Positions 19,881 through 48,181 of a DNA stretch of 57,567 bases are shown here, in pieces. Source of the stretch: Pseudomonas phage vB_Pae-SS2019XI; sequence record MN536026.1; one strand, written 5' to 3'. A program made the translations under genes and the position numbers. Each line of letters starts with the position of its first letter. Within the stretch, counting starts at the first letter, position 1. The notes under the pieces were generated by a model, which was not told the origin of the DNA, searched no databases, and saw only the letters and a program-made list of their open reading frames with translations.

Positions 19881-19912
19881 GAGAATCAACTAATAGTTGT
19901 GGATAAAACAAG

Positions 19913-24291: not shown

Positions 24292-24381
24292 CCGGAGGGC
24301 TGACACATGGCGCTTTGCCTCGTAGTGGAGTCGCGGTTATCATCTCAACCAAATGTTGATTTAACTACAAGGAATTGCCTG

Positions 24382-27624: not shown

Positions 27625-27992
27625 GGCTTGGGTCTCCTGGTCTCGTCGAGCCACTGCTGGACTGCACCTGGTATGTCATACGCGGGATTTCCGTAGAACA
27701 CCTGGCGGTAACGTGCACTCATCTCCTGGTGGCTGACCACTCGACCGTCGACGACGTTTGCGCTACTGCCGGGTTCGGATCCAGGGGCGTACCAACCAAG
27801 CTCCTTCTCACGGTCCGTTAGATCCCGTTCCCGGTCGTACGGCCCGATCTCGCTGGCATTACACACCTCGCAGTGGTAGGGGCCGCACTGCTCGTACCCG
27901 ACGCCGATATCTACGAAGTCGGCTCGGCATGTAGCGCCGCAGTACGGGCAACTAATCTCCGGCTCTTTCTCGCCGTACGCGTAGCCGCTCAT
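27621..27992 (-). CDS. Zn-ribbon protein
   Basis: 123 aa, CPYCGATC...CGPYHCEVC. Confidence 0.45.
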   Translation of the reverse strand: MSGYAYGEKEPEISCPYCGATCRADFVDIGVGYEQCGPYHCEVCNASEIGPYDRERDLTDREKELGWYAPGSEPGSSANVVDGRVVSHQEMSARYRQVFYGNPAYDIPGAVQQWLDETRRPKP

Positions 27993-28672
27993 TCGAACTC
28001 CCTCCCACCGTGGATACGGAGTTCAGATTCGACGCGCTCGCCGATGGCGTTGCAGCTTCCCCTTTTGGGCTCCTGCAGGTCTCCCCCTGGTTGCAGACCG
28101 AGGTACTCCCGCCAGGGAACTTTGACCCCATCGACGAGGAAGCCCCAGGTCTCGCGCCATTTCCAGGAAATGAACAGGGTGTAGACGCCGCCATCGCTCA
28201 CCTCACAGATCGAGTGGTACTGACCAGTCTTCAGGGCTGCGGTATCGCCGGCGCGTCGCCAGATAGCCTCCGTGACTTCGATTGCCCCGATTTCACAGCC
28301 GTCAAGGGCCTCCGGTACCCGAGCGATGGCCGCCTGGTAGAGCGGATTGCTCTCGTCGACCAGGCGTTTCTCGATGTACCAGCCCTTCAGGATGATCGTG
28401 CGGGCGTCCCAGGGATGGTCATGAAGGTGCCGGTCGAGGTCTTCCCGGCGAATGTGGTGCACGCGGATCGAGAACGGGATCAGTGGCGCCCAGCGCGGCA
28501 CATTGGTGACGCGGTCGTAGGGGTTGAAGACCCAGTAGCGCTCCATGTACACCGAGCCGTCAGGACTCCGCAGGTGCAAGTACGGCGTGCGCTTTGCGAA
28601 CCGGATGAGGGCGTCTGCGATGCGCGGTTTGGTCAGCAGACGGGCCAGATAACTCCATGCAAAATCAACCAT
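27989..28672 (-). CDS. hypothetical protein with His-rich metal-site-like motif
   Basis: 227 aa from ATG 28672 (GGAGA 9 nt upstream). Motif VHHIRREDLDRHLHDHPWD. Function unknown. Confidence 0.45.
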   Translation of the reverse strand: MVDFAWSYLARLLTKPRIADALIRFAKRTPYLHLRSPDGSVYMERYWVFNPYDRVTNVPRWAPLIPFSIRVHHIRREDLDRHLHDHPWDARTIILKGWYIEKRLVDESNPLYQAAIARVPEALDGCEIGAIEVTEAIWRRAGDTAALKTGQYHSICEVSDGGVYTLFISWKWRETWGFLVDGVKVPWREYLGLQPGGDLQEPKRGSCNAIGERVESELRIHGGREFE

Positions 28673-28698
28673 TTGTTGTATCTCCAGGCGTGATTTAT

Positions 28699-28959
28699 CT
28701 AGTCGGAACCGGGGCCGAGAGACCCGGCATCCCAGATGTTCTTTGCGTCTGCCATGAGCCGGTGGTAGCCGCTTGGCGTGAACTGGTAGCGCTTGGGTGG
28801 CGCTTCGAGCAGCTCGCGCACGATGTTCCTCAGCCCTGGCCGGCGCCCTTCGTCGACCCAACTTAAATCTGCTAAATCAAAGGTTTGTTGTATCTGAGGG
28901 CGAAGAACGCCCTCCGGGGTGATCAGTGCATCCCGGCTCATGCGGATCTCTTCACTCAT
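28699..28959 (-). CDS. hypothetical protein
   Basis: 86 aa from ATG 28959, which overlaps upstream stop (ATGA). Contains the conserved 23-bp DNA motif in frame. Confidence 0.35.
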   Translation of the reverse strand: MSEEIRMSRDALITPEGVLRPQIQQTFDLADLSWVDEGRRPGLRNIVRELLEAPPKRYQFTPSGYHRLMADAKNIWDAGSLGPGSD

Positions 28960-29789
28960 AGGTCGCTCTCCTCGTAGCGCATCCAGGCGTCGTTCGCGCC
29001 GGTACGCCACATGCCGTAGTTCTGTTTGATGATGACGGCCGGCGCATTCCAGTGCTGGCAGGCCTTGTCGAGATCCGCCTCACTGGCAGTCCACTGATCG
29101 CTGTTGCTGTTGGCCGTGGTCTTGATCGGGCGTTGCGGCATCAGGCGTAGGAGACCGCCGCTGAGGTCGGACACAGCCTCTTGCAAGTCGATCTGCCGGA
29201 CGCTCAACTGCAGGCAGTCGGAGCCGCAGATCAGCGAGGTGAGCGGCATTGCGTGATAGACGAGCATCGCGCCGTCCGGCGTTAGGATGCCCTCGACCGC
29301 GGCGCCCAGCATCCAGGAGCGGTCGCCGTTGAAACGAAGGATCGAGGCCAGGTGCTCCAGCTCAGGCGTGAGTCTGTCGATAGCCGCGCCTACAAGCCCC
29401 TTGCGGTCTGTAGTCCAGGGCCAGGGTTTGCCATCGGCAGTGATGGCCGTGATAACTCGCCGGCCGGCGATCTCCGGCTCAACCCAGCAGGAGAACATCG
29501 ACACCGCCGTGCGGCTGTAGGGGACGGCGCTCATGACTTCACCTGGCCACGGGGCCTTGTTCTCGATGAAGCTGATCTGTGGGCTGGCGAGGAAGGTCTG
29601 CAGGTTCATCCGCAGCTTTACCTTGCCGTCTTCCTCTCGCCCCTGAAGCTGTGCGCGGCACATCGGGCAGTTGAACAGGCGCTGGTCATCGGGTGCGTTA
29701 CCGCAGATCTGGTACTTGCAGTAGGGGCAGGGGATGCGCACCTCGCGAGGCCACTGCGGAAACGCGAACAGTTCGAGTTTCGGGCTCAC
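28956..29789 (-). CDS. Zn-finger protein (CPYC...CPMC), acidic C-terminus ...YEESDL
   Basis: 277 aa if started at GTG 29789, which overlaps the TGA of the small upstream ORF (GTGA) and has GGGGG upstream. The table start 29855 is a GTG without RBS. Confidence 0.4.
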   Translation of the reverse strand: MSPKLELFAFPQWPREVRIPCPYCKYQICGNAPDDQRLFNCPMCRAQLQGREEDGKVKLRMNLQTFLASPQISFIENKAPWPGEVMSAVPYSRTAVSMFSCWVEPEIAGRRVITAITADGKPWPWTTDRKGLVGAAIDRLTPELEHLASILRFNGDRSWMLGAAVEGILTPDGAMLVYHAMPLTSLICGSDCLQLSVRQIDLQEAVSDLSGGLLRLMPQRPIKTTANSNSDQWTASEADLDKACQHWNAPAVIIKQNYGMWRTGANDAWMRYEESDL

Positions 29790-29899
29790 AGGTGGCACCC
29801 CCACTTCCAGCTGACGAAGCTCAGGAGCAGCGGTGCGACCGCGATAATTGCCCACCCGAATAGGACGACGATGCCGATAGGGATCAGTGCTCGCATCAT
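29786..29899 (-). CDS. possible 37-aa hydrophobic peptide
   Basis: MMRALIPIGIVVLFGWAIIAVAPLLLSFVSWKWGCHL. GAGGA 7 nt upstream. Begins right after the upstream gene's stop. Confidence 0.25.
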   Translation of the reverse strand: MMRALIPIGIVVLFGWAIIAVAPLLLSFVSWKWGCHL

Positions 29900-29901
29900 G
29901 G

Positions 29902-30720
29902 TCAGTCCTCCTCGCTGGAGGCGAGCAGGGTGCTCAGCTCTTTCATCACGGCATCGCAAACAACTCTCGCCATAGCGGCAGACTTGCAATCCACAGAAGC
30001 GCCATCAGATGGGAATACCACTACGGGATAGCGGTCTCGCACCGCCTGCACGGATGCGAAGATGTCGGCCTCACTCACCACCTTGCCGTTGAGGCGCGCC
30101 AGTTCGTCGAGGCAGGCGTTCCAGCCTCGGTTCATGTGCAGGCCTGGGATCGTGGATTGCCCGCTCTTCCGCTCCGGCACAACGACTACCCTTGCGCGCA
30201 GGGCTTCCAGCTTCTCGTCGATGCAGGTCAGACAGACATAGCCGCCCATCCAGTCGACGCGCAGCGGGGTGTGTTTGTGCTCCCCACAACCGGCGCAATT
30301 GGTTGCCTGGGTGCTGGCGTAGGTCCAACGGCTGCGCAGCTCCTTCTGCAGCTCGGCTACTTTCTCGCGTAGCTCCTGGATCTCCATTTCCATGCCGCCA
30401 GCAGCGTGGCGGACAGCATCACCCTTTGCTGCTGCGTCGAGAGCCATTGCGAGCTTGGTGGCTAGCAGCTGTTCCTGCTTCTCCGACTCGGCCAGCCTCG
30501 CCTGGAGCTTCTCGACGTCTTCCTCAGCAGCCCGCAGGCACCCTCGAATGACTTTGAGTGTGTCCTCGCTTACCTCTAAACGACACTCGATAGCTGCCGT
30601 CGCCGAGGAGGGCTGCGCCTCCAGATGTTCGATTGCGGCTTGGATCAGGGCCTTGTTGCCGATGGGGGTATTGGACCAATCGGCGGTCCGTAGAGCCTCA
30701 ATGACGTGGCTTCTGTTCAT
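29902..30720 (-). CDS. hypothetical coiled-coil protein with C-terminal Cys cluster
   Basis: 272 aa from ATG 30720 (GAGGGG upstream). Central coiled coil. CAGCGEHKH...CLTC. Confidence 0.45.
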   Translation of the reverse strand: MNRSHVIEALRTADWSNTPIGNKALIQAAIEHLEAQPSSATAAIECRLEVSEDTLKVIRGCLRAAEEDVEKLQARLAESEKQEQLLATKLAMALDAAAKGDAVRHAAGGMEMEIQELREKVAELQKELRSRWTYASTQATNCAGCGEHKHTPLRVDWMGGYVCLTCIDEKLEALRARVVVVPERKSGQSTIPGLHMNRGWNACLDELARLNGKVVSEADIFASVQAVRDRYPVVVFPSDGASVDCKSAAMARVVCDAVMKELSTLLASSEED

Positions 30721-30733
30721 GATGTGTAGCCCC

Positions 30734-30973
30734 TCAGTGCTTGGTGGTCGAGCAGGCGGGTACACGACCCTCCGCTCGTTCATGGGTCGCAACCTTGAAG
30801 AACAGCGCTCCGCAATGGGGGCAACTGGAAAGGGTGTCCCACAATTCGCCTTGTGGAGGGCGCTCCGTTTCGATCTCGAAGCCGCACCGCGGGCAGTCGA
30901 ATGCGAGAAACTGAACACCCTGTGCTTTCAGCCTGTTCGTGTACTCGGTGTACTTTTGGAAGAGGGTTTTCAC
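30734..30973 (-). CDS. Zn-ribbon protein
   Basis: 79 aa, CPRCG...CPHCG. Confidence 0.45.
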   Translation of the reverse strand: MKTLFQKYTEYTNRLKAQGVQFLAFDCPRCGFEIETERPPQGELWDTLSSCPHCGALFFKVATHERAEGRVPACSTTKH

Positions 30974-31704
30974 GCTTTTGTCTCCTCCACATGGGCCAGC
31001 AGCAGCAGATTGCCTCCGGTTTCAAGCTGCTTGGCCAGTACGTAGGTGTCCTGCACGAGGAAGTCGTGCAGCCGCTGACCAGTGGCGAGCAGGCCCTGGT
31101 AAAAGCGATTGCAGGTAGCCTCGGCCGCTTCGCTCCAGGGGATCACGGTGCAGTCGCGGGTCATGTCGTCGCCGTAGCCGCATTGGTAGAGGCGCCCGGT
31201 GTACTCGCGAGCGTAGAGCTTGCCGTTGATCCGCCAGCGGATGTCGAAATTGAAGCCGACCAGCGCGCCTTCGTAGACATCGGAGAACGACGGCAGCTTG
31301 TCGACGCGGCGCCCGTTTTCGTCTTTGGCGGCGTAGGCGGCCTTGATCACGATCACCTTCTCTTCTATGGCGGTCAGTGCCGCTTCACGGTAGGCGTTCA
31401 TGATGATCTTGAACTGCGCTTCGATGCCCTCGATGCCGCGCGTGCTGGAGATGTAGTGCGTCCCGGTTTTCGGGTCTTTCTCGACCCGGATGCGGTCGTC
31501 GATGCGGTCGCCGATCCAGACCCCCATCAGGGCGACCACGTAGTCGGGGATCGCGATCACGAGGCAGGTGTCGCCCCGAGGGTCCAGGTAGACGGCGCGC
31601 CGCTCCTGGTTGCCCTCCGGCACGCCGACCGTGTAGTCGGAGTAGACGTAGACACTGATGTCCTTGACCTTCTTGAAAATGCTAGGGAATGCTCGGGTAG
31701 CCAT
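30970..31704 (-). CDS. hypothetical protein
   Basis: 244 aa, start overlaps upstream stop; no recognisable motif. Confidence 0.45.
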   Translation of the reverse strand: MATRAFPSIFKKVKDISVYVYSDYTVGVPEGNQERRAVYLDPRGDTCLVIAIPDYVVALMGVWIGDRIDDRIRVEKDPKTGTHYISSTRGIEGIEAQFKIIMNAYREAALTAIEEKVIVIKAAYAAKDENGRRVDKLPSFSDVYEGALVGFNFDIRWRINGKLYAREYTGRLYQCGYGDDMTRDCTVIPWSEAAEATCNRFYQGLLATGQRLHDFLVQDTYVLAKQLETGGNLLLLAHVEETKA

Positions 31705-32078
31705 TAGTTACCCCCTCTGGTGCGGGGCGCGGTGATGGCTTTCTCATAGGCGGCGAGAGCCTGCGCAGCTGCGATAGGCGCTTCGTTCAGCAACTGATAG
31801 TCCTGGATGGGTATCTTCGACACTCCGGGCATCAGCATGCCGATGACTTTTTGCAGGCCCTTCAGCGCCACTGCGAGCTGTTCTTGCCGTTCTTGCCCGT
31901 CGGCAAGCTCGTCCAACAGAGTGTCGACGCCACTACCACTGAACGGCCCCAGGGCGCCGGCAGCCGGACACCAGGTATCAGCTTCGTACCCGGCCCCTTC
32001 GCTCAGGAACTCCCAACCGTTCGCAGATCTGCGTAGCCAGTGGCCGCTATCGGTCCGCATCGTTTTACTCAGTTTCAT
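31704..32078 (-). CDS. hypothetical protein
   Basis: 124 aa ORF in the leftward operon. Confidence 0.4.
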   Translation of the reverse strand: MKLSKTMRTDSGHWLRRSANGWEFLSEGAGYEADTWCPAAGALGPFSGSGVDTLLDELADGQERQEQLAVALKGLQKVIGMLMPGVSKIPIQDYQLLNEAPIAAAQALAAYEKAITAPRTRGGN

Positions 32079-32111
32079 GGTTTCCCTCTCTTTTCGTATC
32101 AGGGCGGCGCT

Positions 32112-32390
32112 TTATGCTTTGCAAAAATCCTTACGGCCTGCCAGCCAGCGGGTGAAGTCACGCGCGGCTTTGCTGACAAGTTCAGTGCTGGTGTCGCTTT
32201 CGAACTCGACGGTGTAGAAGACACTGGTCGAAGTGAAGTCGCCGCCAATTTCGTATTTGTCCGCGATCCCTTCCACCGCTTCATCGAGCGCGCGCCTGCT
32301 GGCGCATGTGCCAATCGCAGACGCACTTGGAATAAGGCGGCACGCGACTTTAGCGGTGTGCCTGGATTCCATCTTGATGTCGTATGCCAT
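32112..32390 (-). CDS. hypothetical protein
   Basis: 92 aa ORF in the leftward operon. Confidence 0.35.
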   Translation of the reverse strand: MAYDIKMESRHTAKVACRLIPSASAIGTCASRRALDEAVEGIADKYEIGGDFTSTSVFYTVEFESDTSTELVSKAARDFTRWLAGRKDFCKA

Positions 32391-32433
32391 GGTGTTGTCC
32401 TCGGTGATGCCCTGCTACCGGCAGGGCGGCGGG

Positions 32434-32655
32434 TTATGCGCCCCTGGTGTTCATCAGCTCGGCTATCTTGTCGGCGCTGAAAATATCAACCGTCGCCGAG
32501 CATTCATTGCAGCCAAGCACGAACAGGCAGACAACTTCGCTGGCCTTGAGCCGACCGTTCTGCACGCCGGAGTAGGTCACGTTATTGGTGAACCACGACA
32601 GGTCTTTACTGCCGCATTCCTTACAGGAAGTTATTGCCGTCGCCTTGATATCCAT
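32434..32655 (-). CDS. Zn-ribbon protein
   Basis: 73 aa from ATG 32655 (GAGGAAAGGAC upstream), CKECG...CNEC. Confidence 0.45.
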   Translation of the reverse strand: MDIKATAITSCKECGSKDLSWFTNNVTYSGVQNGRLKASEVVCLFVLGCNECSATVDIFSADKIAELMNTRGA

Positions 32656-32754
32656 GTCCTTTCCTCGGTGATGGCCCGGTCCGCCAGGGCGTTGGCTTTG
32701 ATAGATTTTGCACACCTTTCTGGTGTAAATACAACAGAAAGTTGATTTAGCCGT

Positions 32755-32783
32755 AATTTAGATGCGCTCGAATCGTGTGTCAA
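32755..32783 (-). promoter_or_regulatory. candidate sigma70 promoter for leftward transcription
   Basis: Minus strand reads TTGACA-N17-TAAATT (-35 at 32783-32778, -10 at 32760-32755). The spacer carries the CACACGATTCG half of the recurrent operator motif. Confidence 0.35.
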
Positions 32784-32809
32784 CTAAATACGGCTAAATC
32801 GTTCTGCCG

Positions 32810-33733
32810 TTAGGCGGCGGCGAGGAGGGTTTCCAGGACCCTGTGGCCGGCGAGCGGCGGCACCGCGTTGCCTGCCATGTGGGTGCAAAGCTTCAGGTTG
32901 GTGGGCCTGAGCGTGTCCTTGCTGAACGACATGGCTTGCAGGGTTTCGTCGTCGGTGAGCATTCGCATGTGGTCACCATCGACAACAGCCCATCGAGCAC
33001 GGGTCGTGATGGTCCCTATCGGGCGCTCAATGCTTCGGCCGGTGAGACCGGAGCCGGATCCGTAGTAGGGCATCACGAACCTGTCACCGAAGTCCTTCCG
33101 CCCATTGCGTACCCGGCGCAGCGTAGCGTCGGCGCGACCTGGCTTCTCGATCAACGTCCAGTTGCCGGAGTCGAAGTCGATGAAAGACGCAGCCGGCACA
33201 TGGTCGTACTTTGGCAACTTGAGCTGGAGAGGGGTCTTGCTGCGAGTGCAGACCAGGAAGAGCCTCACCCTGTTCTGTGGGACGCCGAGGTCTGCGCAAT
33301 CAACGACATGGGGCGAAACAGCATACCCGAGGGCCTTCACGGCGTACTCCCAAGCAGGGTACAGGGACCAGGTGAGGAACTCCGGCACGTTCTCGACTAC
33401 CGCGCCGTCTGGTTTGTGATATTCCAGTGCGTCGATTACAGCCCAGGCTGTGCTGCGGGCGGCGTCGTGCTCCGGATTCCCTTCCGGCCTACCTCGCGCC
33501 TTGGTGAAGCCGGTACAACACGGCGACGCGAGGAGTAGGTTGTGCCAAGGGACCTTGGACCAGTTTGCCTGCTGCAGATCCTGGCAGACGTGGACCGTCT
33601 CGGGGTGGTTCGCTGCGTGCCAGTGGACGGCTGTGGGCCAGTGGTTGGCGGCCCACACCACATTCACTCCAGCAGCACGCGCCCCGGTGGTCCAGCCGCC
33701 CATGCCAGCGAAGAGGTCGACTGCAGTATCCAT
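32810..33733 (-). CDS. DNA cytosine-5 methyltransferase (orphan)
   Basis: 307 aa; motif I DLFAGMGG, PC motif LLASPCCTGFT, ENV motif VVENVPEF; no adjacent restriction endonuclease. Confidence 0.8.
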   Translation of the reverse strand: MDTAVDLFAGMGGWTTGARAAGVNVVWAANHWPTAVHWHAANHPETVHVCQDLQQANWSKVPWHNLLLASPCCTGFTKARGRPEGNPEHDAARSTAWAVIDALEYHKPDGAVVENVPEFLTWSLYPAWEYAVKALGYAVSPHVVDCADLGVPQNRVRLFLVCTRSKTPLQLKLPKYDHVPAASFIDFDSGNWTLIEKPGRADATLRRVRNGRKDFGDRFVMPYYGSGSGLTGRSIERPIGTITTRARWAVVDGDHMRMLTDDETLQAMSFSKDTLRPTNLKLCTHMAGNAVPPLAGHRVLETLLAAA

Positions 33734-33747
33734 CTGCGCCTCCCCGT

Positions 33748-34278
33748 TTAAAGATCGTCGTACTCGGCCGAGAGGCGGATGTACTCAGCCTCGTCGATCT
33801 CCATGAGCGTCTGGGCTTCATCGAAATCAGGTCCACTCGGGTGACCTTTGCCCGTGCCGGGTCCGGTGCGGAACACACACTCAGACTCGGGGTGGTGCCA
33901 GTACCGCACGGAGCCCTTGAGGAACGCGCTCTTGTCGACGGTCAGCGTCTGCTTCTCGGCCTCGATCTGGGCCTTGGTGCGGCGTGTACGCACCTCGCTT
34001 TCGTCGATGCGCCACACACGGACCCCGGCCTTCTTGTAGATCTCGTCCAGTTCAACGTCGCGTGCGATTAGCGGGACGTTCACCTTCTTGCCCAGGTCGA
34101 GCAACGGGCGGACGTCCTTCTTGGTGGCATCGGCGAGGAAGAAGCTATCGCCTACCCTCATGGAGACCAGGGTCTTGACCTTCGGGTCGTTCATGTCCAC
34201 GCCGCGTTTACGTCGGGTTCCGGGTTGCTCCACGTCTTGCTCCACGATGATCACTGCTGTGTTGATGTCGAAGGTCAT
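33748..34278 (-). CDS. hypothetical protein, acidic C-terminus ...AEYDDL
   Basis: 176 aa; ATG overlaps rdgC stop (ATGA). Confidence 0.45.
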   Translation of the reverse strand: MTFDINTAVIIVEQDVEQPGTRRKRGVDMNDPKVKTLVSMRVGDSFFLADATKKDVRPLLDLGKKVNVPLIARDVELDEIYKKAGVRVWRIDESEVRTRRTKAQIEAEKQTLTVDKSAFLKGSVRYWHHPESECVFRTGPGTGKGHPSGPDFDEAQTLMEIDEAEYIRLSAEYDDL

Positions 34279-35381
34279 AGGTCGTCATCCTCGGTTTGCC
34301 GGCGGGCCTGCTCGAACTCGTCATCGTCGCCGTCCTCGCCGTCGATCACGCCCTTCAGACGCTCCTTCGAGATCTCGGGGGAGCGATAGACTTCGACGCC
34401 GTTGATGGAAATGGATCCGCCGTTCTTGATCGGAGCGATAACAGCGGCGACGTCGTTCGCCAGCTTGCTCGGCAGGTCTTCCCCCAACTGGTCAGCCAGA
34501 GTGCCGACCAAGCGCTGGATCGTCCCGACCAGGATCGCAAGGGACGCATCCAGGGTAGTGGCCGGGTCTCCATCCGAGTCCTTGCCGATCTCCCCGAGAA
34601 CCAGGTCGTCGAATTTGATGCTTTTGAAAATGAGCTGGTCGCTGACCTTGAAGTACATCTGGTCCTCACCCTCCCAACTGAACGCAACCAGCAGCTCGGC
34701 GACGCGGAAGGCGTTGTTGAGGTAGGACTGAGGCTCCTCGTCGTCCAGGTTGACCCCCTTGAACGTGACCACGTCCTTTTCGCTGTTGACCAGCTTGGCT
34801 GCGTCCAGGCGCTTGAGGTTGTCGTACGCGTTGGAGCGCATGATCTCGGTGAGCCATGCAGAGGGCTCGACCTTGAAGGTGAGGGGGCGAACAGACAGTG
34901 AGTCCATGGCGCGCCGCAGGGCGTCCAGGGCGTCCTCCGCCTTCTTGGCGCTGCTGCTTTCGACGACCAGGAGGTTGCCTATCACCAGCATGTTGATGAC
35001 GCTGTGCTTGATGAATGCCCGCGGCAGAAGCTCGGCTTCGACCTCGTCGCGGATCTGCGCCAGCTCCTTGCGGTAGCACTTCCGCTGCTCGCGACTCTCG
35101 ATCTTCTCGACTCTCGCGGCGACGTGTTCGCGGATGGTGGCGCCGGTCAGTTGGCGCTCATGGACATACAGGGTGAAGAGGTTGGCGCCGGACGGTGCAC
35201 TCCAGACCAGCTCGTCGCTCAACCGCGGCGCCGGCAGGTCGAAGCCGAGTGCCCGCCACTGGCTGCCTGTGGGCTCGCGTGCCGGCAGTTCGGCCAGCAG
35301 CGCACCGAGGCCTTCCCAGTCGTTGAGCGTGGCGACATGGTCGGGGTTGGTGACTCGGTAGAACATCATGTTCTTGAACAT
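34275..35381 (-). CDS. rdgC: recombination-associated protein RdgC-like
   Basis: N-terminal MFKNMMFYRV and the LLPRAF...SSAKKAEDALDALRRAMDSL block parallel E. coli RdgC. An extra acidic tail ends TEDDDL. Confidence 0.8.
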   Translation of the reverse strand: MFKNMMFYRVTNPDHVATLNDWEGLGALLAELPAREPTGSQWRALGFDLPAPRLSDELVWSAPSGANLFTLYVHERQLTGATIREHVAARVEKIESREQRKCYRKELAQIRDEVEAELLPRAFIKHSVINMLVIGNLLVVESSSAKKAEDALDALRRAMDSLSVRPLTFKVEPSAWLTEIMRSNAYDNLKRLDAAKLVNSEKDVVTFKGVNLDDEEPQSYLNNAFRVAELLVAFSWEGEDQMYFKVSDQLIFKSIKFDDLVLGEIGKDSDGDPATTLDASLAILVGTIQRLVGTLADQLGEDLPSKLANDVAAVIAPIKNGGSISINGVEVYRSPEISKERLKGVIDGEDGDDDEFEQARRQTEDDDL

Positions 35382-35384
35382 GAT

Positions 35385-35636
35385 CTAACCCTCCTGTGAG
35401 GCCGGCTGAGGCCGCTGGGTGAGACGGTAGGTGAAGCCCCCGCCGACCAGTTCTTCGACGGTCACTTTCTCCCCCGGCAGCAGCTTGGCGAAGTCTTCGG
35501 GCCCGACGCTGATTTCGTCGATGCCGACCTTCTTCATCACCACGCCGATGGCGAGTACGGTCGCTTGGGTGAACTGCTCCTGCTGCCGCTGGTTCATCGC
35601 GGTCAGCGTTTCGAGCGCCATGTTGTGTTTGCGCAT
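35385..35636 (-). CDS. hypothetical protein
   Basis: 83 aa ORF directly upstream of rdgC. Confidence 0.4.
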   Translation of the reverse strand: MRKHNMALETLTAMNQRQQEQFTQATVLAIGVVMKKVGIDEISVGPEDFAKLLPGEKVTVEELVGGGFTYRLTQRPQPASQEG

Positions 35637-35651
35637 TGCGTGTTCCTCTGG

Positions 35652-36005
35652 TTAAAAATCGAGTTCGTTCAGGGCGCCGCCTCGTTGACCCTCCAGAATG
35701 GCGGCTTTGATCTTCACCTCGCCGTGCACAGCGGCTAGATGGCGCAGGGCGTACCCGCCCATAACGCATAGGGAGTGTGGGGCGTGTTCTCGCGGGTCGA
35801 TCTCGTCGCCGCGCTCGTCCAGGAGGCGGTAGACGGCCCTCAAACCGCTGAGGTACTCAGTGACGGCGACTCCGGTGTTGCCGTGCATCTGAGTGAGGGC
35901 GAACAGGAACCGGTCCCCGTCTAGGGGGAACCAGAACGTCTCGAACACTTCTGCGGGGGCGGGGCCTTCCGCCGAGGCAACTTGGATCGTCGGCATGGCG
36001 GTCAC
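35652..36005 (-). CDS. hypothetical protein
   Basis: 117 aa, starts at the stop of the ParB-like gene. Confidence 0.4.
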   Translation of the reverse strand: MTAMPTIQVASAEGPAPAEVFETFWFPLDGDRFLFALTQMHGNTGVAVTEYLSGLRAVYRLLDERGDEIDPREHAPHSLCVMGGYALRHLAAVHGEVKIKAAILEGQRGGALNELDF

Positions 36006-37018
36006 AGATCGTCGTCGTCGGTCTTGGCGGCCTCGGCAGCTTTGGCCGCTTTTGCCTCGGCGCGTTTACGTTGCTCCTCCTGCACGGCTTCAACGTTCCC
36101 GTGGGCTGCGAGCAGCGCCATCAACGGTACGACGTCGATGGTGACCTGCCCTCCGTCGATGCGTCCTTCACGGAAGTCGTTGACGACGGCCTCCGCTTCG
36201 GGGCTGAGGCTGCGGCGGAACTTGGCGACATTGCCGACCAGGTCGTTCACGACGGGGCGGGGTAGGGGGCTCCCCTTCATCGTGCCGGCCGTAACTTTCT
36301 TGCTGCCCTGCTTGACTGCCTTGGCGTACTCCTTCTCGATGACTTCAACGGCGTCGCTGCCGTGCTCCTTGGCGATCTTGACCGCCTCGGTGACGGCGAT
36401 CTTGCCGGTCTTGACGGCTTCCTGAACGCCGTGGTCCGCATTCGCTAAGGCGAGGTGGCGGTCAACATGGTCGCGGGGCTTGTTGAACGCTTTGGCGATC
36501 TCCGTCGCGTTCAGGCCGAACTCGACCTGAGCCCGCTTGTAGAGTCGGGCGGTCTCCACTTCCGTGAGCGCGAGGTGCTCGTTGCCTGTGCCGATGCGCA
36601 CGAGCTTTTGCAGATCGTTGCCCTGGAACGGGATGCATTCGATGAACTCCAGGTCGTCAACTTTTTCGAGCAGCTTCGCCTTGTCCGCCGCAGCCATGTC
36701 CTCCCGGATCAGCGACCGGAGCTGCTCTTGCTTGGCCGGGATGACGCGGCCGAAGGCCTCGTGGCGGCGGTGCCCTTGGACGATCTCAATGGCCCCAGTC
36801 TTCGGGTTGACCTCGACCTCCAAGGGGGCCACTTGACCTCCACCCAGGAGGAACTTCTCCAGGGCGTTGATGCTGTGCCAGTAGCGCTCGTCCTTGTCGC
36901 GCTCGTTGTTGCCTGGGACGACCACCAGGTCGGAGTAGCGCACCCGGTAGAGGTCTCGCGACTTGATTGCTTTGTCGCGGCGGAGGCTCTTGAACGAATA
37001 TGCTTTTTCTTGAGTCAT
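36002..37018 (-). CDS. ParB-like nuclease domain protein
   Basis: 338 aa from ATG 37018; GHRRHEA motif (ParB/Srx GxRRxxA); ends TDDDDL. Confidence 0.6.
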   Translation of the reverse strand: MTQEKAYSFKSLRRDKAIKSRDLYRVRYSDLVVVPGNNERDKDERYWHSINALEKFLLGGGQVAPLEVEVNPKTGAIEIVQGHRRHEAFGRVIPAKQEQLRSLIREDMAAADKAKLLEKVDDLEFIECIPFQGNDLQKLVRIGTGNEHLALTEVETARLYKRAQVEFGLNATEIAKAFNKPRDHVDRHLALANADHGVQEAVKTGKIAVTEAVKIAKEHGSDAVEVIEKEYAKAVKQGSKKVTAGTMKGSPLPRPVVNDLVGNVAKFRRSLSPEAEAVVNDFREGRIDGGQVTIDVVPLMALLAAHGNVEAVQEEQRKRAEAKAAKAAEAAKTDDDDL

Positions 37019-37068
37019 GGTTGCTTTCTCAATGGTTTGTTGTTTCTGCAGACGCACCTATCCCGTGG

Positions 37069-37611
37069 TCAGGCGCTTTCCGTTCTCACGCCGACCTGCT
37101 GGACGAAACGTACGCTTTCAGGTAGGTAGTGCTCGCGGTCATAGGAAGTGGCCTGCTTACTAGCCTTTCGGCCGAGCACAATCACTTCAGAGCCTATGCC
37201 GATCACCATCCTGCGGCGCAAACGAGGCTCTCCGCCGATGCTGACCATCCAGGTTTCGCCTGGCTTCGCAGTGGGGGCCGTGCTTGGGTCGTAGACCTCG
37301 ATATCCGTCTCTTCTTCGACCACTCCTAGGCCTTCACCGATGACTCGACGACGGCGCAAGCGGCGCACGGGCAGGCCTCCCTCGTTCACCGCGCCTTCGA
37401 CCAGTGGCTGTATGAGAGCGTGTATCGCTTGCCCAACCGCCAGGTTGATCACCGTTTTGCCTCTCGGGGAAGGTACGTCTTTTGCCAAGCCTTTCCAGTT
37501 GAGCAGGCCGGCGGCTCGGAGTTGCGCGATAGCGGTCTCTTCCGAGAGAGCGGACGTGTCGTATTCAAGGTGGTCGAGAAGGACCTTGAGGTGCATGTGC
37601 TTGAATTCCAC
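37069..37611 (-). CDS. hypothetical protein
   Basis: 180 aa, GTG start with GAGGGG 7 nt upstream. Confidence 0.4.
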   Translation of the reverse strand: MEFKHMHLKVLLDHLEYDTSALSEETAIAQLRAAGLLNWKGLAKDVPSPRGKTVINLAVGQAIHALIQPLVEGAVNEGGLPVRRLRRRRVIGEGLGVVEEETDIEVYDPSTAPTAKPGETWMVSIGGEPRLRRRMVIGIGSEVIVLGRKASKQATSYDREHYLPESVRFVQQVGVRTESA

Positions 37612-37621
37612 GGTTGTCCCC

Positions 37622-38536
37622 TCAGATCTTCTTGCCGTTCGGTGCCAGGCGGGCTTCGCGTGTGTGGTCCTGGCGGGTCTGGTTGAACGCCATCTTCTCG
37701 ATCAGCGCTCGGCCCACGTCCAGGTTGCGGCCGCCAGCGTAGTCGGCGATGCGAATCAGCGCGTCTGCCAGCTCCACCTCGATCATCTTGCGGTGAGGAA
37801 GCTTGTCGTCCATCAGGTTCTTGCGGACCCCCTCGAAGCCCTCGATCACTTCGCTGATGATCAGGCAGAGCAGCTCGCCGTCGTTGCGCTCCTTGGGTTC
37901 GCCGGTCTCCAGGTCGCTCCACCAACCGGCGTAGCGGTTGAGGGCGTGCGACATGTCGCTGAGCCGGTTGATGGAAGTGGCGATGCTCGCCACGTACTCG
38001 GGGTCCACCAGCAAGGCGGGGTGTTCCGCGAGGCGGTCGCACGCCTCTTCGAAACTCATGGGTTCCGACTTCAGCGAGTTCCAGGCGATGCGGCAGCGCT
38101 CTTCGTGGTTCTCGGGCACCCCATTAGGCGCCAGTTCCTGGGCCGACCACTGCCGGAATACCTTGAATCCGTCCTCGTTGCCGCGGTAGGCCGCGTAGAC
38201 GGTCTGGAGGCCGAGCAGCCAGTCCTTGTAGTAGGTGCCCTGCAGATCGCAGTTACCCGCATCGACGATCCGGACGCTTAGGTCTTCCTCGTAGCTGGAC
38301 CACTCGACAATCAAGCGTAGGCCTCCTTCTTTCACGTCGAGCAGGGTATTGCGAGCCTCGGCCAAGTCTTCCTTCCGTGCCGCTTCGAACAGCGTTGGAA
38401 GTGTCGAATCAACCGTTTGTTGTTTCTGCGGGCGAGCGGAAGACCCTTGGTCGAGAAGGGTGGTAGGCATTTCCGCAAGGGCCATTTCCGTTGAGCGCGC
38501 CCCCAAGCTGGGGAGGCCGGTTGCTTTGTCATTCAT
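37622..38536 (-). CDS. protein with C-terminal MazG-like NTP pyrophosphohydrolase domain
   Basis: 304 aa from ATG 38536 (GGAGAAAAACC upstream). C-terminal LLCLIISEVIEGFEG...EVELADALIRIADYAGGRNLDVGRALIEKMAFNQTR resembles the MazG/HisE EExxE helices. Confidence 0.5.
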   Translation of the reverse strand: MNDKATGLPSLGARSTEMALAEMPTTLLDQGSSARPQKQQTVDSTLPTLFEAARKEDLAEARNTLLDVKEGGLRLIVEWSSYEEDLSVRIVDAGNCDLQGTYYKDWLLGLQTVYAAYRGNEDGFKVFRQWSAQELAPNGVPENHEERCRIAWNSLKSEPMSFEEACDRLAEHPALLVDPEYVASIATSINRLSDMSHALNRYAGWWSDLETGEPKERNDGELLCLIISEVIEGFEGVRKNLMDDKLPHRKMIEVELADALIRIADYAGGRNLDVGRALIEKMAFNQTRQDHTREARLAPNGKKI

Positions 38537-38621
38537 GGTTTTTCTCCAGGGGTGATCTATCATCGTTGTGTTGTTTATACTACATTTAGTTGAGTTAAAC
38601 ACAACAAATAAGGCCGAGGCC

Positions 38622-38969
38622 CTATTCGATGCGAGTCACCGTCGCGATGACCATGGTGTCGCCGTTCGGCGCTCGGAAGTCGCCCATGGCGAGGGTGTAC
38701 CGAGCGTCCGGCAGGCGTTTCCTTGCGTTCCGCACCTGGCCGGTGACTGTCGACTTGAGCTGCTCTTTGGCCGCCTGGATGTCGGGCCAGGGGTGTGCGC
38801 AGTCGGGGAAGCGGACAGCGCGTGCTTCCGTCTCGCCGAGGTCCAGCTCGACGAGCCGGCTGGTGAAACTGTCAGCCTGCGGCCGGCGCTTCGGTGGCAC
38901 GGCAACACCCGAGTCGACGTCGGGTAGATCCAGGTCATCGGAGGTATGGGTCGGTGTCGATTTCGCCAT
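38622..38969 (-). CDS. hypothetical protein (first gene of leftward early operon)
   Basis: 115 aa from ATG 38969. The longer 38622..39137 ORF is extended by iteron-derived KNLAG repeats and was trimmed. Confidence 0.4.
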   Translation of the reverse strand: MAKSTPTHTSDDLDLPDVDSGVAVPPKRRPQADSFTSRLVELDLGETEARAVRFPDCAHPWPDIQAAKEQLKSTVTGQVRNARKRLPDARYTLAMGDFRAPNGDTMVIATVTRIE

Positions 38970-39034: not shown

Positions 39035-39080
39035 CTCTGTTTTGCGCTTCTGGAGCTGAACGGTCGAAGAAAGGGCCAGG

Positions 39081-39254
39081 GATCCGGCGAGGTTTTTCAA
39101 GTAAGCGGAGCCGCGGGGATCCGGCGAGGTTTTTCAAGTAAGCCAGGGGTTCCGCGCCGGGGAACGGGCCAGGTTTTTCAAGTAAGGACGAGAAGGAATC
39201 CGGCCAGGTTTTTCAAGTAAGAAAAATCTGTAGCGGCGGGGTCGGCGAAGTAAG
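39081..39254. repeat. iteron array: 4.5 direct copies of CCGGC(G/C)AGGTTTTTCAAGTAAG
   Basis: 25-bp units at 39081-39105 and 39118-39142 are identical. Further cores at 39171-39186 and 39206-39221, with a partial copy at 39247-39254. Spacing 33-44 bp. Lies between the divergent PL-like and PR-like promoters. Confidence 0.8.
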
Positions 39255-39430: not shown

Positions 39431-39495
39431 ACGCCGTCGGTTTTCAACGGGCGGCATTCGACCCGCCGAACAACAAACGGTTGAGGATTCAACAG

Positions 39496-40005
39496 ATGGC
39501 TAAGAAATTGACCGAGCAACAGCAAGCAGTCGCCGACTTTCTGGCGGCCGCTGGCGTAGAGTTTTCCGTTATTCCGCGCTGTGCGACGAAGCGCGACGAC
39601 TGGGAATGCGACGAATGGGCGCCGCTGTTCCGTCGCGGTTCGGACCGTGAAGGCCACCAGATAGCGCACGCCTATTTCACGGGGATCGGGCACCGTAAAT
39701 CCGAACGGCCGATGCCGCCGGACATCGCCCGACTGGCGCCCCGCATTCTCGCCCGCGTGGAGTGGGAAAAGCGCCACCTTAAGCCGGTAGCGCCGTGCGC
39801 CGCTGACGTTCTTTACTGCCTGCTGTCGGACGCCAACGGCGCCGACCAGAATTTCAACGATTGGTGCGCCGACTTCGGTTATGACCCGGACAGCCGGAAG
39901 GCCCTGGCAACCTATGACGAATGCTCCAAAGTCCTGGCGGACGTGCGGGCGTTTTTCAGCGCCGCCGAACGCGAAAAGCTGGCCGAACTGCTGGAGGGCT
40001 ATTAA
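39496..40005 (+). CDS. hypothetical protein
   Basis: 170 aa from ATG 39496; GAGG 12 nt upstream; first gene of the rightward small-gene operon. Confidence 0.45.
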   Translation: MAKKLTEQQQAVADFLAAAGVEFSVIPRCATKRDDWECDEWAPLFRRGSDREGHQIAHAYFTGIGHRKSERPMPPDIARLAPRILARVEWEKRHLKPVAPCAADVLYCLLSDANGADQNFNDWCADFGYDPDSRKALATYDECSKVLADVRAFFSAAEREKLAELLEGY

Positions 40006-40007
40006 TC

Positions 40008-40217
40008 ATGGCGATTTTCACTGTTCGGTTCGACACGGATAACGAAGCCTTCGACGGCGCCGGTCGTGACTATGAGATTGCACGGATTTTGCGCGCTATC
40101 GCCGATAAGGTGGAGGGCTTCGGCTGTTCCGGATTCTTCGAAACCATACGCGACATCAACGGGAACGACGTCGGCCGCTTCGCCCTGAAGAACGCCGACG
40201 GCACCAACGGGGAGTAG
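40008..40217 (+). CDS. hypothetical protein
   Basis: 69 aa from ATG 40008, three nt after upstream stop. Confidence 0.35.
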   Translation: MAIFTVRFDTDNEAFDGAGRDYEIARILRAIADKVEGFGCSGFFETIRDINGNDVGRFALKNADGTNGE

Positions 40218-40222
40218 CCGCA

Positions 40223-40468: not shown

Positions 40469-40504
40469 TGCCCTCGAATCAACTTTCTATTGAGGTGACA
40501 ACAA

Positions 40505-40786
40505 ATGGAACTAACCGCATATCTCCAGCACGGCAAAGCCGGCGGCCCGTATCGGACCGAGCGTGTCCCGGTAATGGAACAGCCGGCCGAAATTGTCCCC
40601 GCTGCTCGCTCCCGCACCGGCTACGGCAAAGACTTGCCGACCCCGTACCTGATCGACTGGGAAGGGCTGCGCCGCCGGGTCTATGCCGTCTGCTATTCGA
40701 ACGTCGCCAGCTTCTACATCCGTACGAATCGCGACACGGACAACGGCGGCCGGATCTTCGTCACTATCGACCGGGAGGGCGCGTAA
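40505..40786 (+). CDS. hypothetical protein
   Basis: 93 aa; GAGGTGA RBS; preceded by the 21-bp repeat. Confidence 0.4.
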   Translation: MELTAYLQHGKAGGPYRTERVPVMEQPAEIVPAARSRTGYGKDLPTPYLIDWEGLRRRVYAVCYSNVASFYIRTNRDTDNGGRIFVTIDREGA

Positions 40787-43185: not shown

Positions 43186-43214
43186 CGAATCAACTTTCTA
43201 TTGAGGAAACAACT

Positions 43215-45230: not shown

Positions 45231-45266
45231 AGCGAGCAAAAATAAACCCGCCATGTAGGCGGGTTT
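45231..45266 (-). terminator. rho-independent terminator downstream of primase-helicase gene
   Basis: AAACCCGCC-atgta-GGCGGGTTT 9-bp perfect stem (45244-45266), followed on the minus strand by AUUUUUG. Confidence 0.6.
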
Positions 45267-48100: not shown

Positions 48101-48181
48101 AGTTACAACCTCTGGTAGAGTGGACAATCTCAAGTTGATAGCCTACAGTCGGCCCTGTTAGAGATCAATCGATAATGAGTG

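Follow-up and report, generated by a model that had tools for sequence, protein, structure and literature searches.

An Enriched Palindromic Site Family in a Pseudomonas aeruginosa Siphophage Genome as Candidate Operators of an XRE-Type Regulator

Introduction

The stoperators of the Cluster A mycobacteriophages L5 and Bxb1 are the sites of a phage helix-turn-helix (HTH) regulator, and about 24-34 copies are present genome-wide. They are 13-bp asymmetric sequences located mostly in short intergenic gaps and oriented with transcription, and their consensus varies between heteroimmune subclusters. Protein p4 of phi29 binds multiple inverted repeats, by which early promoters are repressed and a late one is activated, and in the Streptomyces phage phiC31 about 18 conserved inverted repeats bound by the repressor are dispersed in the early region. 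In mosaic temperate phages, short conserved boundary or linker sequences are found at module junctions where alternative genes are exchanged. The CI system of coliphage 186 comprises three pR operators two helical turns apart and the distal FL and FR operators; the promoter-proximal operators are strong, and the distal single operators aid repression by looping (PMC3675496).

The sequence analyzed here (the window, 57,567 nt) is that of a Pseudomonas aeruginosa temperate siphophage of the Casjensviridae type. A preliminary description had reported four minus-strand copies of a 23-mer in it and had proposed a protein-binding site or a recombination linker. The former is the best-supported reading, given a palindromic core, its genome-wide enrichment and its presence in distant relatives that carry a homologue of one particular HTH regulator. 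Judging from sequence, we consider the chance slightly better than even that these copies and the palindrome family to which they belong are operator-type sites for the XRE-type regulator encoded at 54852-55517.

Results

With up to two mismatches, the consensus CWGAWACAACAAAYNNTTGA gave exactly four minus-strand matches in the window (28665-28684, 28877-28896, 37029-37048, and 38409-38428) against 0 expected, and 0 of 100 dinucleotide shuffles contained any match, which confirms the four copies first reported. A fifth extended copy on the plus strand (39470-39484) had been missed. The likeness among the extended copies spans 33 nt, CGnC..AGAWACAACAAAYNNTTGA...nCA, and they are located as follows:

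28870-28902, minus strand: extended copy 1, core ACAACAAACCTTTGA, within the 86-aa ORF 28699-28959
28658-28690, minus strand: extended copy 2, core ACAACAAATGGTTGA, which contributes a GGAG ribosome-binding site and ATG 28672
37022-37054, minus strand: extended copy 3, in the intergenic gap before the ParB-like gene, whose ATG 37018 lies 11 nt downstream
38402-38434, minus strand: extended copy 4, codons 35-45 of ORF 37622-38536
39459-39493, plus strand: extended copy 5, in the 5' leader preceding ATG 39496, the start codon of the first rightward gene

Copies 1-4 are spread along the leftward early operon, copy 5 occupies the leader of its rightward counterpart, and all five are in the sense orientation relative to transcription, which has a chance of 1/16. 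The gene at copy 2 (27989-28672, 227 aa) bears the PHROG name 'cysteine dioxygenase'. Copies 3 (CAAC-N5-ATTG-AGAAAG-CAAC) and 5 (CAAC-N5-GTTG-AGGATT-CAAC) have a three-box form, and copy 5 is located at a gene-swap junction, 11 nt upstream of ATG 39496 and below a TTGACA-17-GATAAA promoter-like site. Among five close genomes, the 20-nt cores varied at 3 of 100 positions and their flanks at 109 of 911 (Fisher p = 0.004). The 33-nt extension (CGCC..AGA) is confined to the phage's own lineage, and the likeness most likely reflects duplication of one site-plus-translation-start unit.

Two copies had been noted to give the same in-frame peptide. RPQKQQTVD is indeed found at codons 35-43 of ORF 37622-38536, and LRPQIQQTFD is encoded in ORF 28699-28959, although at codons 19-28 rather than 18-27. 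The identity of frame is not informative, since one motif frame holds TGA and, in copy 1, a second frame reaches TAG three codons on, so that a read-through ORF is limited to the QQT frame (copy 1) or to two frames (copy 4). As read from the sequence, the shared peptide is a by-product of a motif readable in just one or two frames. A functional peptide, R-P/L-x-x-Q-Q-T-hydrophobic-D/E, selected at the protein level would agree with the conservative changes (T/M, F/V/I, D/E) produced by the variable bases; however, copies 3 and 5 are untranslated, the coding part of copy 2 is just MVD, and rare CAA CAA codons recur in all copies in a frame forced by stops elsewhere. This explanation has a vanishingly small probability and is refuted by the non-coding copies. 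The earlier suggestion that the constraint acts on the nucleic acid rather than the peptide holds, because the rare codons CAA CAA and ATA/AAA are present in all copies of a genome with a GC3 of 0.75-0.9, and two extended copies (3 and 5) are non-coding.

Misannotated N-termini had also been considered. For the ParB-like gene this is refuted: homologue alignments begin at ATG 37018 and the gene caller concurs, so that copy 3 is intergenic, as first described. The start ATG 28959 of ORF 28699-28959 overlaps the stop of the upstream gene (ATGA), and the GC3 of this ORF, 0.75-0.85 downstream of the motif, drops to 0.40-0.45 across it. In the MazG-like ORF 37622-38536, the first ~65 codons have a weak coding signal, and the MazG-like pyrophosphatase domain is confined to residues ~179-304.

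The copies do not form a stand-alone 23-mer, but are a subfamily of about 20 genome-wide copies of the palindrome CAAC-N5-GTTG, which is the core of the motif. Exact CAACNNNNNGTTG occurred 12 times versus 0.91 expected, with about ten near-copies in addition; ACAAC-N6-TTGA occurred 10 times (0.27 expected), and CAAC-N5-GTTG with at most one mismatch 56 times (23 +/- 6). The palindrome ranked first among all 4-mer gapped palindromes tested (p = 3e-8). The family is spread over the whole genome, almost entirely in AT-rich intergenic gaps and occasionally inside ORFs, and most members have spacers that differ from that of the extended copies. In six places, two sites are spaced 19 bp apart with a TATAAT-like hexamer between them; the remaining sites are single and occupy short gaps where genes begin or, now and then, the interior of an ORF. 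Six matches to the three-box pattern CAAC-N5-RTWG-N6-CAAC were found where 0.01 would be expected; all six run in the direction of transcription, and four overlap a ribosome-binding site exactly. The sites of the family include the following:

2666-2697, plus strand: double site flanking TATAAT, in the gap that separates the terminase large subunit and head-tail adaptor genes
9296-9318, plus strand: three-box site preceding the major tail protein gene 9331-10119
19887-19899, plus strand: single site preceding the tail assembly chaperone gene 19913-20152
24346-24358, plus strand: single site upstream of the first lysis-region gene
32713-32744, minus strand: double site flanking TATTTA, with centres 19 bp apart; a TTGACA-17-TAAATT promoter-like site lies immediately upstream
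38561-38592, minus strand: double site CAACTAAATGTAG-TATAAA-CAACACAACGATG, after a terminator at 38605-38628
40480-40502, plus strand: three-box site fused with a ribosome-binding site and ATG 40505
43191-43213, plus strand: three-box site fused with a ribosome-binding site and GTG 43215
48106-48204: double site 48106-48137 and single site 48192-48204, between the divergent primase and replication operons
50666-50697, plus strand: weaker double site CAAC..GGTG-TTATAA-CTAC..GTCG
54772-54784, plus strand: near-site CCACAAAAAGTTG, just upstream of the regulator's TTGTTA-16-TAGAAT promoter-like site
55733-55764, plus strand: double site directly 3' of the regulator gene, with a terminator-like hairpin before it

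The double site 38561-38592, about 150 nt upstream of copy 4, is probably the promoter/operator of the leftward operon containing copies 1-4. No -35 element accompanies the double sites, which might therefore be promoters that depend on an activator. It is conceivable, but rather unlikely, that the whole family consists of phage-specific promoters, in which CAAC-N5-GTTG and a hexamer are recognized by host RNA polymerase with a phage factor, possibly with the regulator as activator, and the extended copies are weak internal promoters. TATAAT, TATAAA or TATTTA indeed follows GTTG exactly in double sites, 38561-38592 is the sole promoter candidate past a strong terminator, every three-box site is co-oriented with transcription, and the order of site, -10-like hexamer, CAAC, ribosome-binding site, and ATG before the major tail gene is common to the window and Achromobacter phage AchV4. 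However, the hexamers in the extended copies (ATTTAG, ATTTTG, AGAAAG, ATTCGA, AGGATT) are unlike a -10 element, and a good sigma-70-type promoter is already present upstream of copy 5. Moreover, in four family sites the hexamer is itself the ribosome-binding site, 1-2 nt plus CAAC from the start codon, so that a transcript beginning there would lack one.

Three family sites, including copy 5, are located exactly at junctions where the downstream gene has been swapped among five close genomes. The upstream sequence and the element are kept, and the gene starting 1-2 nt after the element is replaced. Three versions were found at 39471 and two at 43191, and at 40480 each of four close genomes has a different gene. 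This accords in part with the recombination linker proposed earlier, but at none of the four copies then reported was a swap junction seen in the available close genomes. A primary role as linker, in which the site and ribosome-binding-site unit supplies homology for cassette swaps, appears improbable, because no cassettes are exchanged at many of the sites, namely those within the conserved structural operon or beside -10 hexamers, and because the palindrome is retained in several genera at equivalent gene junctions and along with a single regulator gene, which suggests that its role is regulatory. Exchange at a shared regulatory sequence would be a side effect, and the junction position looks like a consequence rather than the function of the sites.

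CAAC-N5-GTTG was also the most enriched palindrome in AchV4 (14 versus 1.2 expected; TCAAC-N5-GTTGA, 9 versus 0.09), Klebsiella phage N133 (5 versus 0.55), and two metagenomic contigs (L068, 7 versus 0.47; L066, 4 versus 0.32). Enrichment was weaker in a third metagenomic contig and in Burkholderia phage AH2 (4 versus 0.97), where the variant AACA-N6-TGTT occurred 8 times (0.47 expected). In the first 50 kb of each genome, the palindrome was not enriched in Chi (0 versus 0.76) or BcepNazgul (3 versus 0.87, all in GC-rich coding sequence). Several positions are shared: the gap between the terminase large subunit and head-tail adaptor genes in AH2 (44037), the primase divergent region in L066, L067, L068, and AH2, the position before the lysis genes in AH2 (21688) and AchV4 (29063), the 3' side of the regulator gene in L066 (10880) and L068 (10725), and its upstream side in six other genomes. 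Phages of other genera also have the A-rich spacer (CAACAAACGGTTG), possibly as a mark of sites with high affinity.

P. aeruginosa, the host of this phage, uses CA motifs (AAnAAnAA) for control by Hfq/Crc. The CA-rich sequence AACAACAA near start codons might accordingly be such a motif, or a translational operator or enhancer; AACAACAA is found in copies 3, 4, and 5, a start codon lies within 11 nt of copies 2, 3, and 5, and the orientation is always sense. We regard control at the RNA level as very unlikely, however. AAnAAnAA is absent from copies 1 and 2, the conserved TTGA half and the palindromic symmetry would have no role, most family sites have other spacers, and the uniform orientation may have arisen by chance. 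In addition, the identical core CAACAAACGGTTG is antisense to its operon in L060, as is the close variant CAACAAACAGTTG in AchV4. RNA folds of the five extended copies were no better than shuffles (z -0.64 to +1.24), and an Rfam search gave no match.

The candidate binding protein is encoded as follows:

54852-55517, plus strand: XRE/HTH_3 regulator, GTG 54852 with a GGAGG ribosome-binding site

It has 221 aa from this start and 238 aa in NCBI. Homologous HTH regulators of 220-240 aa are encoded in AchV4, N133, AH2, and three metagenomic contigs. Across nine genomes (N133, Chi, and Nazgul by their first 50 kb), the sites were present in 7 of 7 genomes or contigs with the homologous regulator and were the top-enriched palindrome in four; in the first 50 kb of Chi and BcepNazgul no regulator homologue was found, and the helicase directly adjoins TerS. 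Residues 55-62 (QEAVRKWF), the predicted recognition helix, vary little or not at all among 42 homologues (31-61% identity), in keeping with the unchanging DNA motif. The structural model (mean pLDDT 92.7) has an N-terminal domain that superposes on 434 Cro (TM 0.79) and a C-terminal domain weakly resembling PD-(D/E)xK nucleases, and 186 CI was absent from its top 50 PDB matches. The AH2 homologue was reported as an HHpred match to 186 CI (PMC3483164).

Other binding proteins fit these distributions less well. Dispersed parS-like centromere sites for the adjacent ParB-like protein would suit copy 3, which directly precedes the gene, and the HTH_ParB domain of its product. This is barely plausible, as AchV4 and N133 (the latter by its first 50 kb), strongest in enrichment, have no ParB homologue by tblastn, BcepNazgul has an annotated ParB-like gene but lacks the motif in its first 50 kb, and no counterpart of copy 3 was found upstream of ParB in relatives with a 40-55% identical protein. 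The last observation indicates that individual sites turn over. DUF7609 is likewise absent from AchV4 and the first 50 kb of N133 and present in Nazgul; the occurrence of neither protein tracks the motif. The host nucleoid protein IHF has the consensus WATCAANNNNTTR, and AATCAA-NNNN-TTG on the plus strand of copies 1, 2, and 4 fits it. Binding of IHF is nevertheless highly improbable: copies 3 and 5 have CTCAA, the TTR part is unmatched in other family sites, the AchV4 and N133 sites read TTCAAC rather than ATCAA, and a host factor leaves unexplained why the first 50 kb of Chi and Nazgul lack the motif.

Discussion

We infer that the XRE-type regulator binds this site family and that binding represses transcription. 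The core (A/T)CAAC-N5-GTTG(A/T), a 13-15 bp inverted repeat, would suit a dimeric HTH protein. On the double sites, where 19 bp corresponds to about two helical turns and a TATAAT-like hexamer is flanked, such a protein would deny access to RNA polymerase. The role proposed for the five extended copies is that of auxiliary operators or roadblocks that strengthen the shut-off of both early operons, either by DNA looping with the promoter-proximal double sites or by blocking the elongating polymerase. The operator reading accommodates the 33-nt extension and the fixed AAA spacer by assumption, and a plain symmetric operator requires neither the co-orientation of the three-box sites nor their overlap with ribosome-binding sites. 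The palindrome is unchanged from Pseudomonas to Klebsiella phages; immunity repressors normally diverge in specificity, and such constancy would be unusual among them. In L067 and L068, no integrase was seen near the regulator. Instead of a lysogeny repressor, the regulator may thus be an activator or a timer of development.

Similar to the boundary sequences of mosaic phages, a conserved element lies where alternative genes are exchanged, but here it belongs to a regulatory site family that is also present without exchange. As in phi29 and phiC31, multiple inverted repeats are candidate sites of a phage regulator; the proteins and motifs are unrelated, however, and a dual role of the regulator is not indicated. 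The layout resembles that of 186, with double sites 19 bp apart at -10 hexamers and single sites 150 bp to kilobases off, although the sites are far more numerous and far more widely spread. The host is Gram-negative and the phage family unrelated to that of the stoperator phages, and binding is predicted. Like stoperators, about 20 sites lie in short gaps, often over start codons, and the three-box sites are all co-oriented with transcription. Unlike stoperators, they have a palindromic core that does not differ among phages of four host genera, a constancy that speaks against an immunity determinant.

Motif copies and genome organization

The genome is that of a temperate siphophage with the gene organization of the Casjensviridae, and its main blocks are arranged as follows.

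Gene blocks of the window
1 to 25.5 kb, + strand: packaging, head, tail and lysis genes
38.5 down to 25.8 kb, leftward: early/recombination block with MazG-like, ParB-like, RdgC-like, methylase and Lar-like genes
from 39.5 kb, rightward: block of small genes
45.3-47.8 kb, - strand: primase
48.3 to 54.8 kb: replication operon
54.85-55.5 kb: HTH_3 regulator
56.0-57.0 kb: integrase

The region separating the two early blocks holds a DUF7609 gene, which has a TTGACA-16-TATATT promoter-like site, and a rightward TTGACA-17-GATAAA site. These leftward and rightward promoter-like sites flank four direct repeats of 28 nt (GGGATCCGGCGAGGTTTTTCAAGTAAGC; 39079-39222, spacing 37, 44, and 35 nt), which resemble iterons or an operator array and have no relation to the CAAC palindrome described below. 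Strong intrinsic-terminator-like hairpins mark operon ends at 38605-38628, 45244-45266, 50718-50737, and 56000-56026, the third of them lying between a weak double site (two palindromes around a hexamer) and the DNA polymerase gene. In addition, two close relatives, L040 and L043, lack about 426 bp of the window (27639-28065). Their BLAST segments meet there and overlap by 10 bp, a pattern suggestive of an insertion or deletion event between short direct repeats close to the end of gene 27989-28672. When the 26-41 kb region was compared with phages by megablast, only small mosaic patches and no close annotated relative came back, and no tRNAs were found in the window.

The preliminary description had reported four minus-strand copies of an extended motif. 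Consistent with this, its consensus with up to two mismatches gave exactly four matches in the window, all on the minus strand (28665, 28877, 37029, and 38409), and none in 100 dinucleotide shuffles, and a repeat search of the window placed the four in one 33-nt family, D1 (CGnC..AGAWACAACAAAYNNTTGA...nCA). The octamer ACAACAAA by itself occurred 9 times against 0.72 expected, and inspection of the extra octamer matches brought up a fifth full copy, ACAACAAACGGTTGA, on the plus strand.

Positions of the five extended copies
Copy 1, 28877, - strand: inside the 86-aa ORF (28699-28959)
Copy 2, 28665, - strand: holds GGAG and ATG of gene 27989-28672
Copy 3, 37029, - strand: intergenic, before the ParB-like gene (ATG 37018)
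Copy 4, 38409, - strand: in the MazG-like ORF (37622-38536), ~150 nt below the leftward double site 38561-38592
Copy 5, 39470-39484, + strand: ~35 nt below the rightward TTGACA-17-GATAAA promoter-like site and 11 nt before ATG 39496

The intergenic position first ascribed to copy 3 is correct, as ParB homologues align from ATG 37018 and the gene caller concurs. Five close genomes with 93-99% identity were compared, namely the window, one Logan contig, and three contigs from IMG/VR. Their 20-nt cores were variable at 3 of 100 positions, compared with 109 of 911 in the flanks (p = 0.004). Together with the absence of matches in shuffled sequence, this indicates that the motif is real and under constraint. 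Copy 2 keeps GGAG...ATG, while the other copies have GCAG or TCAG followed by ACG or ACC. The lineage-specific 33-nt extension is missing from sites with the same core in relatives, and it most likely arose by duplication of one site-plus-translation-start unit. In Klebsiella phage N133, the sites at 42948 and 44960 share about 50 nt of extended similarity (the site plus ...acctgggcatgaaaaagccccgg), so lineage-specific extended copies of the palindrome occur in another genus too.

The motif belongs to a palindromic site family

The motif is a genuine regulatory one but had been read too narrowly: it is a subfamily of a larger palindrome family. The core CAAC-N5-GTTG was observed 12 times in the window against 0.91 expected, and the asymmetric form ACAAC-N6-TTGA 10 times against 0.27. 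When one mismatch was allowed, the core count was 56, compared with 23 +/- 6 in sequences simulated from a first-order Markov model of the window, and the core was the most enriched 4-mer palindrome among all gaps from 2 to 9 (p = 3e-8). The half-site consensus is taaA(A/T)CAAC; the core is symmetric, and the outer A/T asymmetry has no consistent orientation. About 20-23 sites are spread from 2.6 to 55.7 kb. Two lie in ORFs, and further sites occupy AT-rich intergenic gaps genome-wide, including the TerL/adaptor gap, the regions upstream of the major tail, tail chaperone, and lysis genes, the divergent region at the primase, and the surroundings of the regulator gene. The operators of a dimeric HTH regulator are expected to be inverted repeats of ~13-19 bp that occur far above chance and overlap core promoter elements; the palindrome agrees with this, at promoters that are predicted.

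Six double sites consist of a pair 19 bp apart flanking TATAAT, TATAAA, TATTTA, TTATAA, TAACTG, or TCCACT. One falls at +4 of a predicted TTGACA-17-TAAATT promoter, and another, 38561-38592, lies just after a strong terminator, where it is the sole promoter candidate for the leftward operon. The double sites, which are without a -35 element, may be activator-dependent promoters. A promoter reading was rejected for the five extended copies, in which no fitting -10 or -24/-12 spacing of a sigma-70 or sigma-54 promoter was seen by eye. The three-box arrangement CAAC-N5-RTWG-N6-CAAC occurred 6 times against 0.01 expected, every time in the direction of local transcription, and in 4 of these sites the hexamer serves as the ribosome-binding site for the gene that follows.

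Several other explanations were considered for the extended copies. The Hfq/Crc CA motif, AAnAAnAA, is read on the sense strand of the mRNA, within or close to the ribosome-binding site. This pattern is present in copies 3, 4, and 5, but that is only three of the five, and the core is antisense in relatives, so the explanation is unlikely. The binding consensus of IHF, WATCAANNNNTTR, is matched on the plus strand by copies 1, 2, and 4, whereas copies 3 and 5 and the remaining family do not fit it, and an IHF site is likewise unlikely. An RNA hairpin or nut-like element was dismissed as well: the folds had z values of -0.64 to +1.24 with no common fold, and the window had no Rfam match.

Shared peptide and N-termini

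Copies 1 and 4 had been noted to give the same in-frame peptide in two unrelated genes, which is right apart from one codon in the numbering. A peptide motif was rejected, as two copies are non-coding. Read in one frame, the motif has a TGA stop (ACA ACA AAY NNT TGA), and in copy 1 a second frame meets TAG after three codons (TTG ATT TAG). Because of these stops, an ORF crossing the motif can use a single frame at copy 1 and either of two at copy 4, and the common QQT frame would therefore arise by chance with a probability of at least 1/2.

The 86-aa ORF overlaps the gene upstream of it through ATGA, and its coding signal is good both before and after the motif. In the MazG-like ORF, GC3 was 0.53-0.67 in the first ~65 codons and 0.8-0.93 afterwards. 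Substitutions among close relatives showed no third-position bias until ~38000, with 18:12:21 at codon positions 1:2:3 upstream of this point, whereas the pyrophosphatase domain had 1:1:14. The sequence GGAAGGAAG precedes an in-frame TTG at 38365, and the N-terminus (residues 1-178; window 38000-38536) had no homologues beyond its own 90% cluster. The N-terminal ~180 codons are either a young, fast-evolving extension or the result of a mis-called start.

Distribution among relatives

Burkholderia phage AH2, Achromobacter phage AchV4, and Klebsiella phage N133 encode the closest annotated homologues of the regulator, at 40-45% identity; all three phages are Casjensviridae and share the gene order of the window. 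Sites were also counted in three metagenomic contigs, L066-L068.

CAAC-N5-GTTG in regulator-bearing relatives (observed / expected)
AchV4: 14 / 1.2; TCAAC-N5-GTTGA 9 / 0.09, top among 5-mer half-sites
N133 (first 50 kb): 5 / 0.55; 5/5 are TCAAC-N5-GTTGA (0.06 expected)
AH2: 4 / 0.97; plus AACA-N6-TGTT 8 / 0.47
L066 (regulator 57% identical): 4 / 0.32; top palindrome
L067 (regulator 47% identical): 3 sites; not top palindrome
L068 (regulator 35% identical): 7 / 0.47; top palindrome

In all three contigs, the sites lie in the primase region and upstream of the regulator gene, with an additional site downstream of that gene in L066 and L068; counted over all genomes, seven have a site upstream of it. 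The core sequence shared by copies 4 and 5, CAACAAACGGTTG, recurs unchanged within the AchV4 helicase gene and was found again in two further loci, L062 and L060, in the latter antisense to its operon. In two other family members, Chi and BcepNazgul (first 50 kb of each), the helicase adjoins TerS and tblastn found no regulator homologue. Chi had no CAAC-N5-GTTG against 0.76 expected, and BcepNazgul had 3 against 0.87, all in GC-rich coding sequence. Thus, sites were present in 7 of 7 regulator-positive genomes, whereas neither of the 2 regulator-negative genomes was enriched. A motif scan of IMG/VR gave 50 loci, with several copies in three contigs only, all close relatives of the window; the rest were single chance matches in AT-rich contigs. 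A scan of GTDB genomes with the ParB protein gave no relatives.

Other repeats were observed in these phages. Five sigma-70-type promoter-like sites of AH2 (5954, 6647, 8416, 10994, and 57620) share TTGACAC-N9-GTGTC(A/G)CCTA..., and the palindrome in their spacer, GACAC-N9-GTGTC, occurs 6 times against 0.04 expected, the sixth at 12976. It is a second operator-like family, distinct from the CAAC palindrome. In the first 50 kb of BcepNazgul, GAAG-N3-CTTC was strongly enriched (18 against 3.1 expected) and the CAAC palindrome was not.

The candidate regulator

The regulator is identical to a protein named by NCBI from Pseudomonas aeruginosa. When 42 homologues of 31-61% identity were aligned, invariant positions were concentrated at residues 55-62, QEAVRKWF, which form the second HTH helix in a confident model (pLDDT 92.7). 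An invariant recognition helix fits with the unvarying DNA motif. The N-terminal domain of the model superposes on 434 Cro. The best PDB matches of the C-terminal domain were the PD-(D/E)xK nucleases I-Ssp6803I, Hjc, and SPARDA, all weak (E ~3e-4, TM 0.5-0.6). An HHpred match of the AH2 homologue to 186 CI has been reported (PMC3483164). In our analyses, a fold search of the PDB with the regulator model did not retrieve 186 CI among the top 50 matches, and a phmmer search of PDB sequences yielded nothing beyond a weak match to the HTH of LexA; as modeled, the C-terminal domain is not of the CI/LexA or 186 CI type.

Other candidate binders were rejected. ParB homologues are missing from AchV4 and N133, and BcepNazgul has an annotated ParB-like gene, so the sites do not track the ParB gene as parS sites would. 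DUF7609 homologues are also missing from AchV4 and N133 yet present in BcepNazgul, and an 87-aa Cro-like protein does not track the motif.

Sites at cassette junctions

Three family members, at 39471, 40480, and 43191, keep both the sequence upstream of them and their site-RBS-start unit in 5/5 close genomes, but the gene that begins at the start codon comes in three, four, and two versions, respectively. Cassettes at 39496-40221, 40505-40786, and 43215 onward hold unrelated genes in close relatives, with breakpoints exactly at the start codon after the conserved site-plus-RBS unit. We read these junctions as recombination exploiting shared regulatory sequence. The three junctions lend support to the preliminary suggestion of a recombination linker for the family, but not for the four copies for which it was made.

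Proposed mechanism and comparison with known systems

Taken together, a constrained palindromic site family extends over the genome and co-occurs with one HTH regulator gene; double sites bracket -10-like hexamers, and single sites lie in and between genes. From these sequence patterns, we infer dispersed operator sites of a phage regulator, with the product of 54852-55517 as the candidate binder. The regulator would bind the sites as a dimer and at double sites would block RNA polymerase, and within the two early operons the five extended copies might serve as roadblocks or auxiliary operators. In which direction regulation goes is uncertain, because the motif, unlike immunity operators, does not diverge between genera, and because some regulator-bearing relatives show no integrase nearby. 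The double sites have no -35 element, so the regulator may be an activator or timer. A wider generalization is tentative and on balance doubtful: regulator-bearing Casjensviridae-type phages might have a common regulon in which one XRE-type protein, having an invariant recognition helix and a C-terminal domain of nuclease fold, binds 10-25 TCAAC-N5-GTTGA sites per genome, including RBS-fused and intra-ORF sites. In this view, the protein would silence or time the early, replication, and late operons globally, in the manner of stoperators, with site-plus-start-codon units as the standard junctions of early-cassette exchange.

If the sites are such operators, a testable regulatory map becomes available for a little-studied group of temperate siphophages, with hosts in Pseudomonas, Achromobacter, Burkholderia, and Klebsiella and with some members under consideration for therapy. 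Such a map would name one regulator gene, one 13-bp recognition sequence, and ~20 sites per genome, and would account for AT-rich, rare-codon islands within two ORFs. The coincidence of translation-start-fused regulatory sites with cassette exchange points also bears on how mosaic phage genomes are assembled. No new kind of mechanism is revealed, and no earlier description was found in the searchable literature on Pseudomonas stoperators, Casjensviridae promoters, AH2, or the motif itself.

Among well-studied systems, 186 CI and the L5/Bxb1 stoperators come closest. The operators of 186 CI are two turns apart, and distal FL/FR sites help repression via looping (PMC3675496); the regulator studied here differs in that its C-terminal domain is predicted to lack the 186 CI fold that forms a 14-mer wheel. 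The L5/Bxb1 stoperators are 24-34 intergenic sites that block elongation (PMC3029335). Like L5-type stoperators, the sites in the window are many, dispersed genome-wide, and in short intergenic gaps. L5-type stoperators are asymmetric with one orientation; the core described here is symmetric, and its three-box extension is co-oriented (6/6). Moreover, L5-type stoperators are bound by the immunity repressor with a specificity that differs among heteroimmune relatives, whereas the present motif and the recognition helix are constant across genera.
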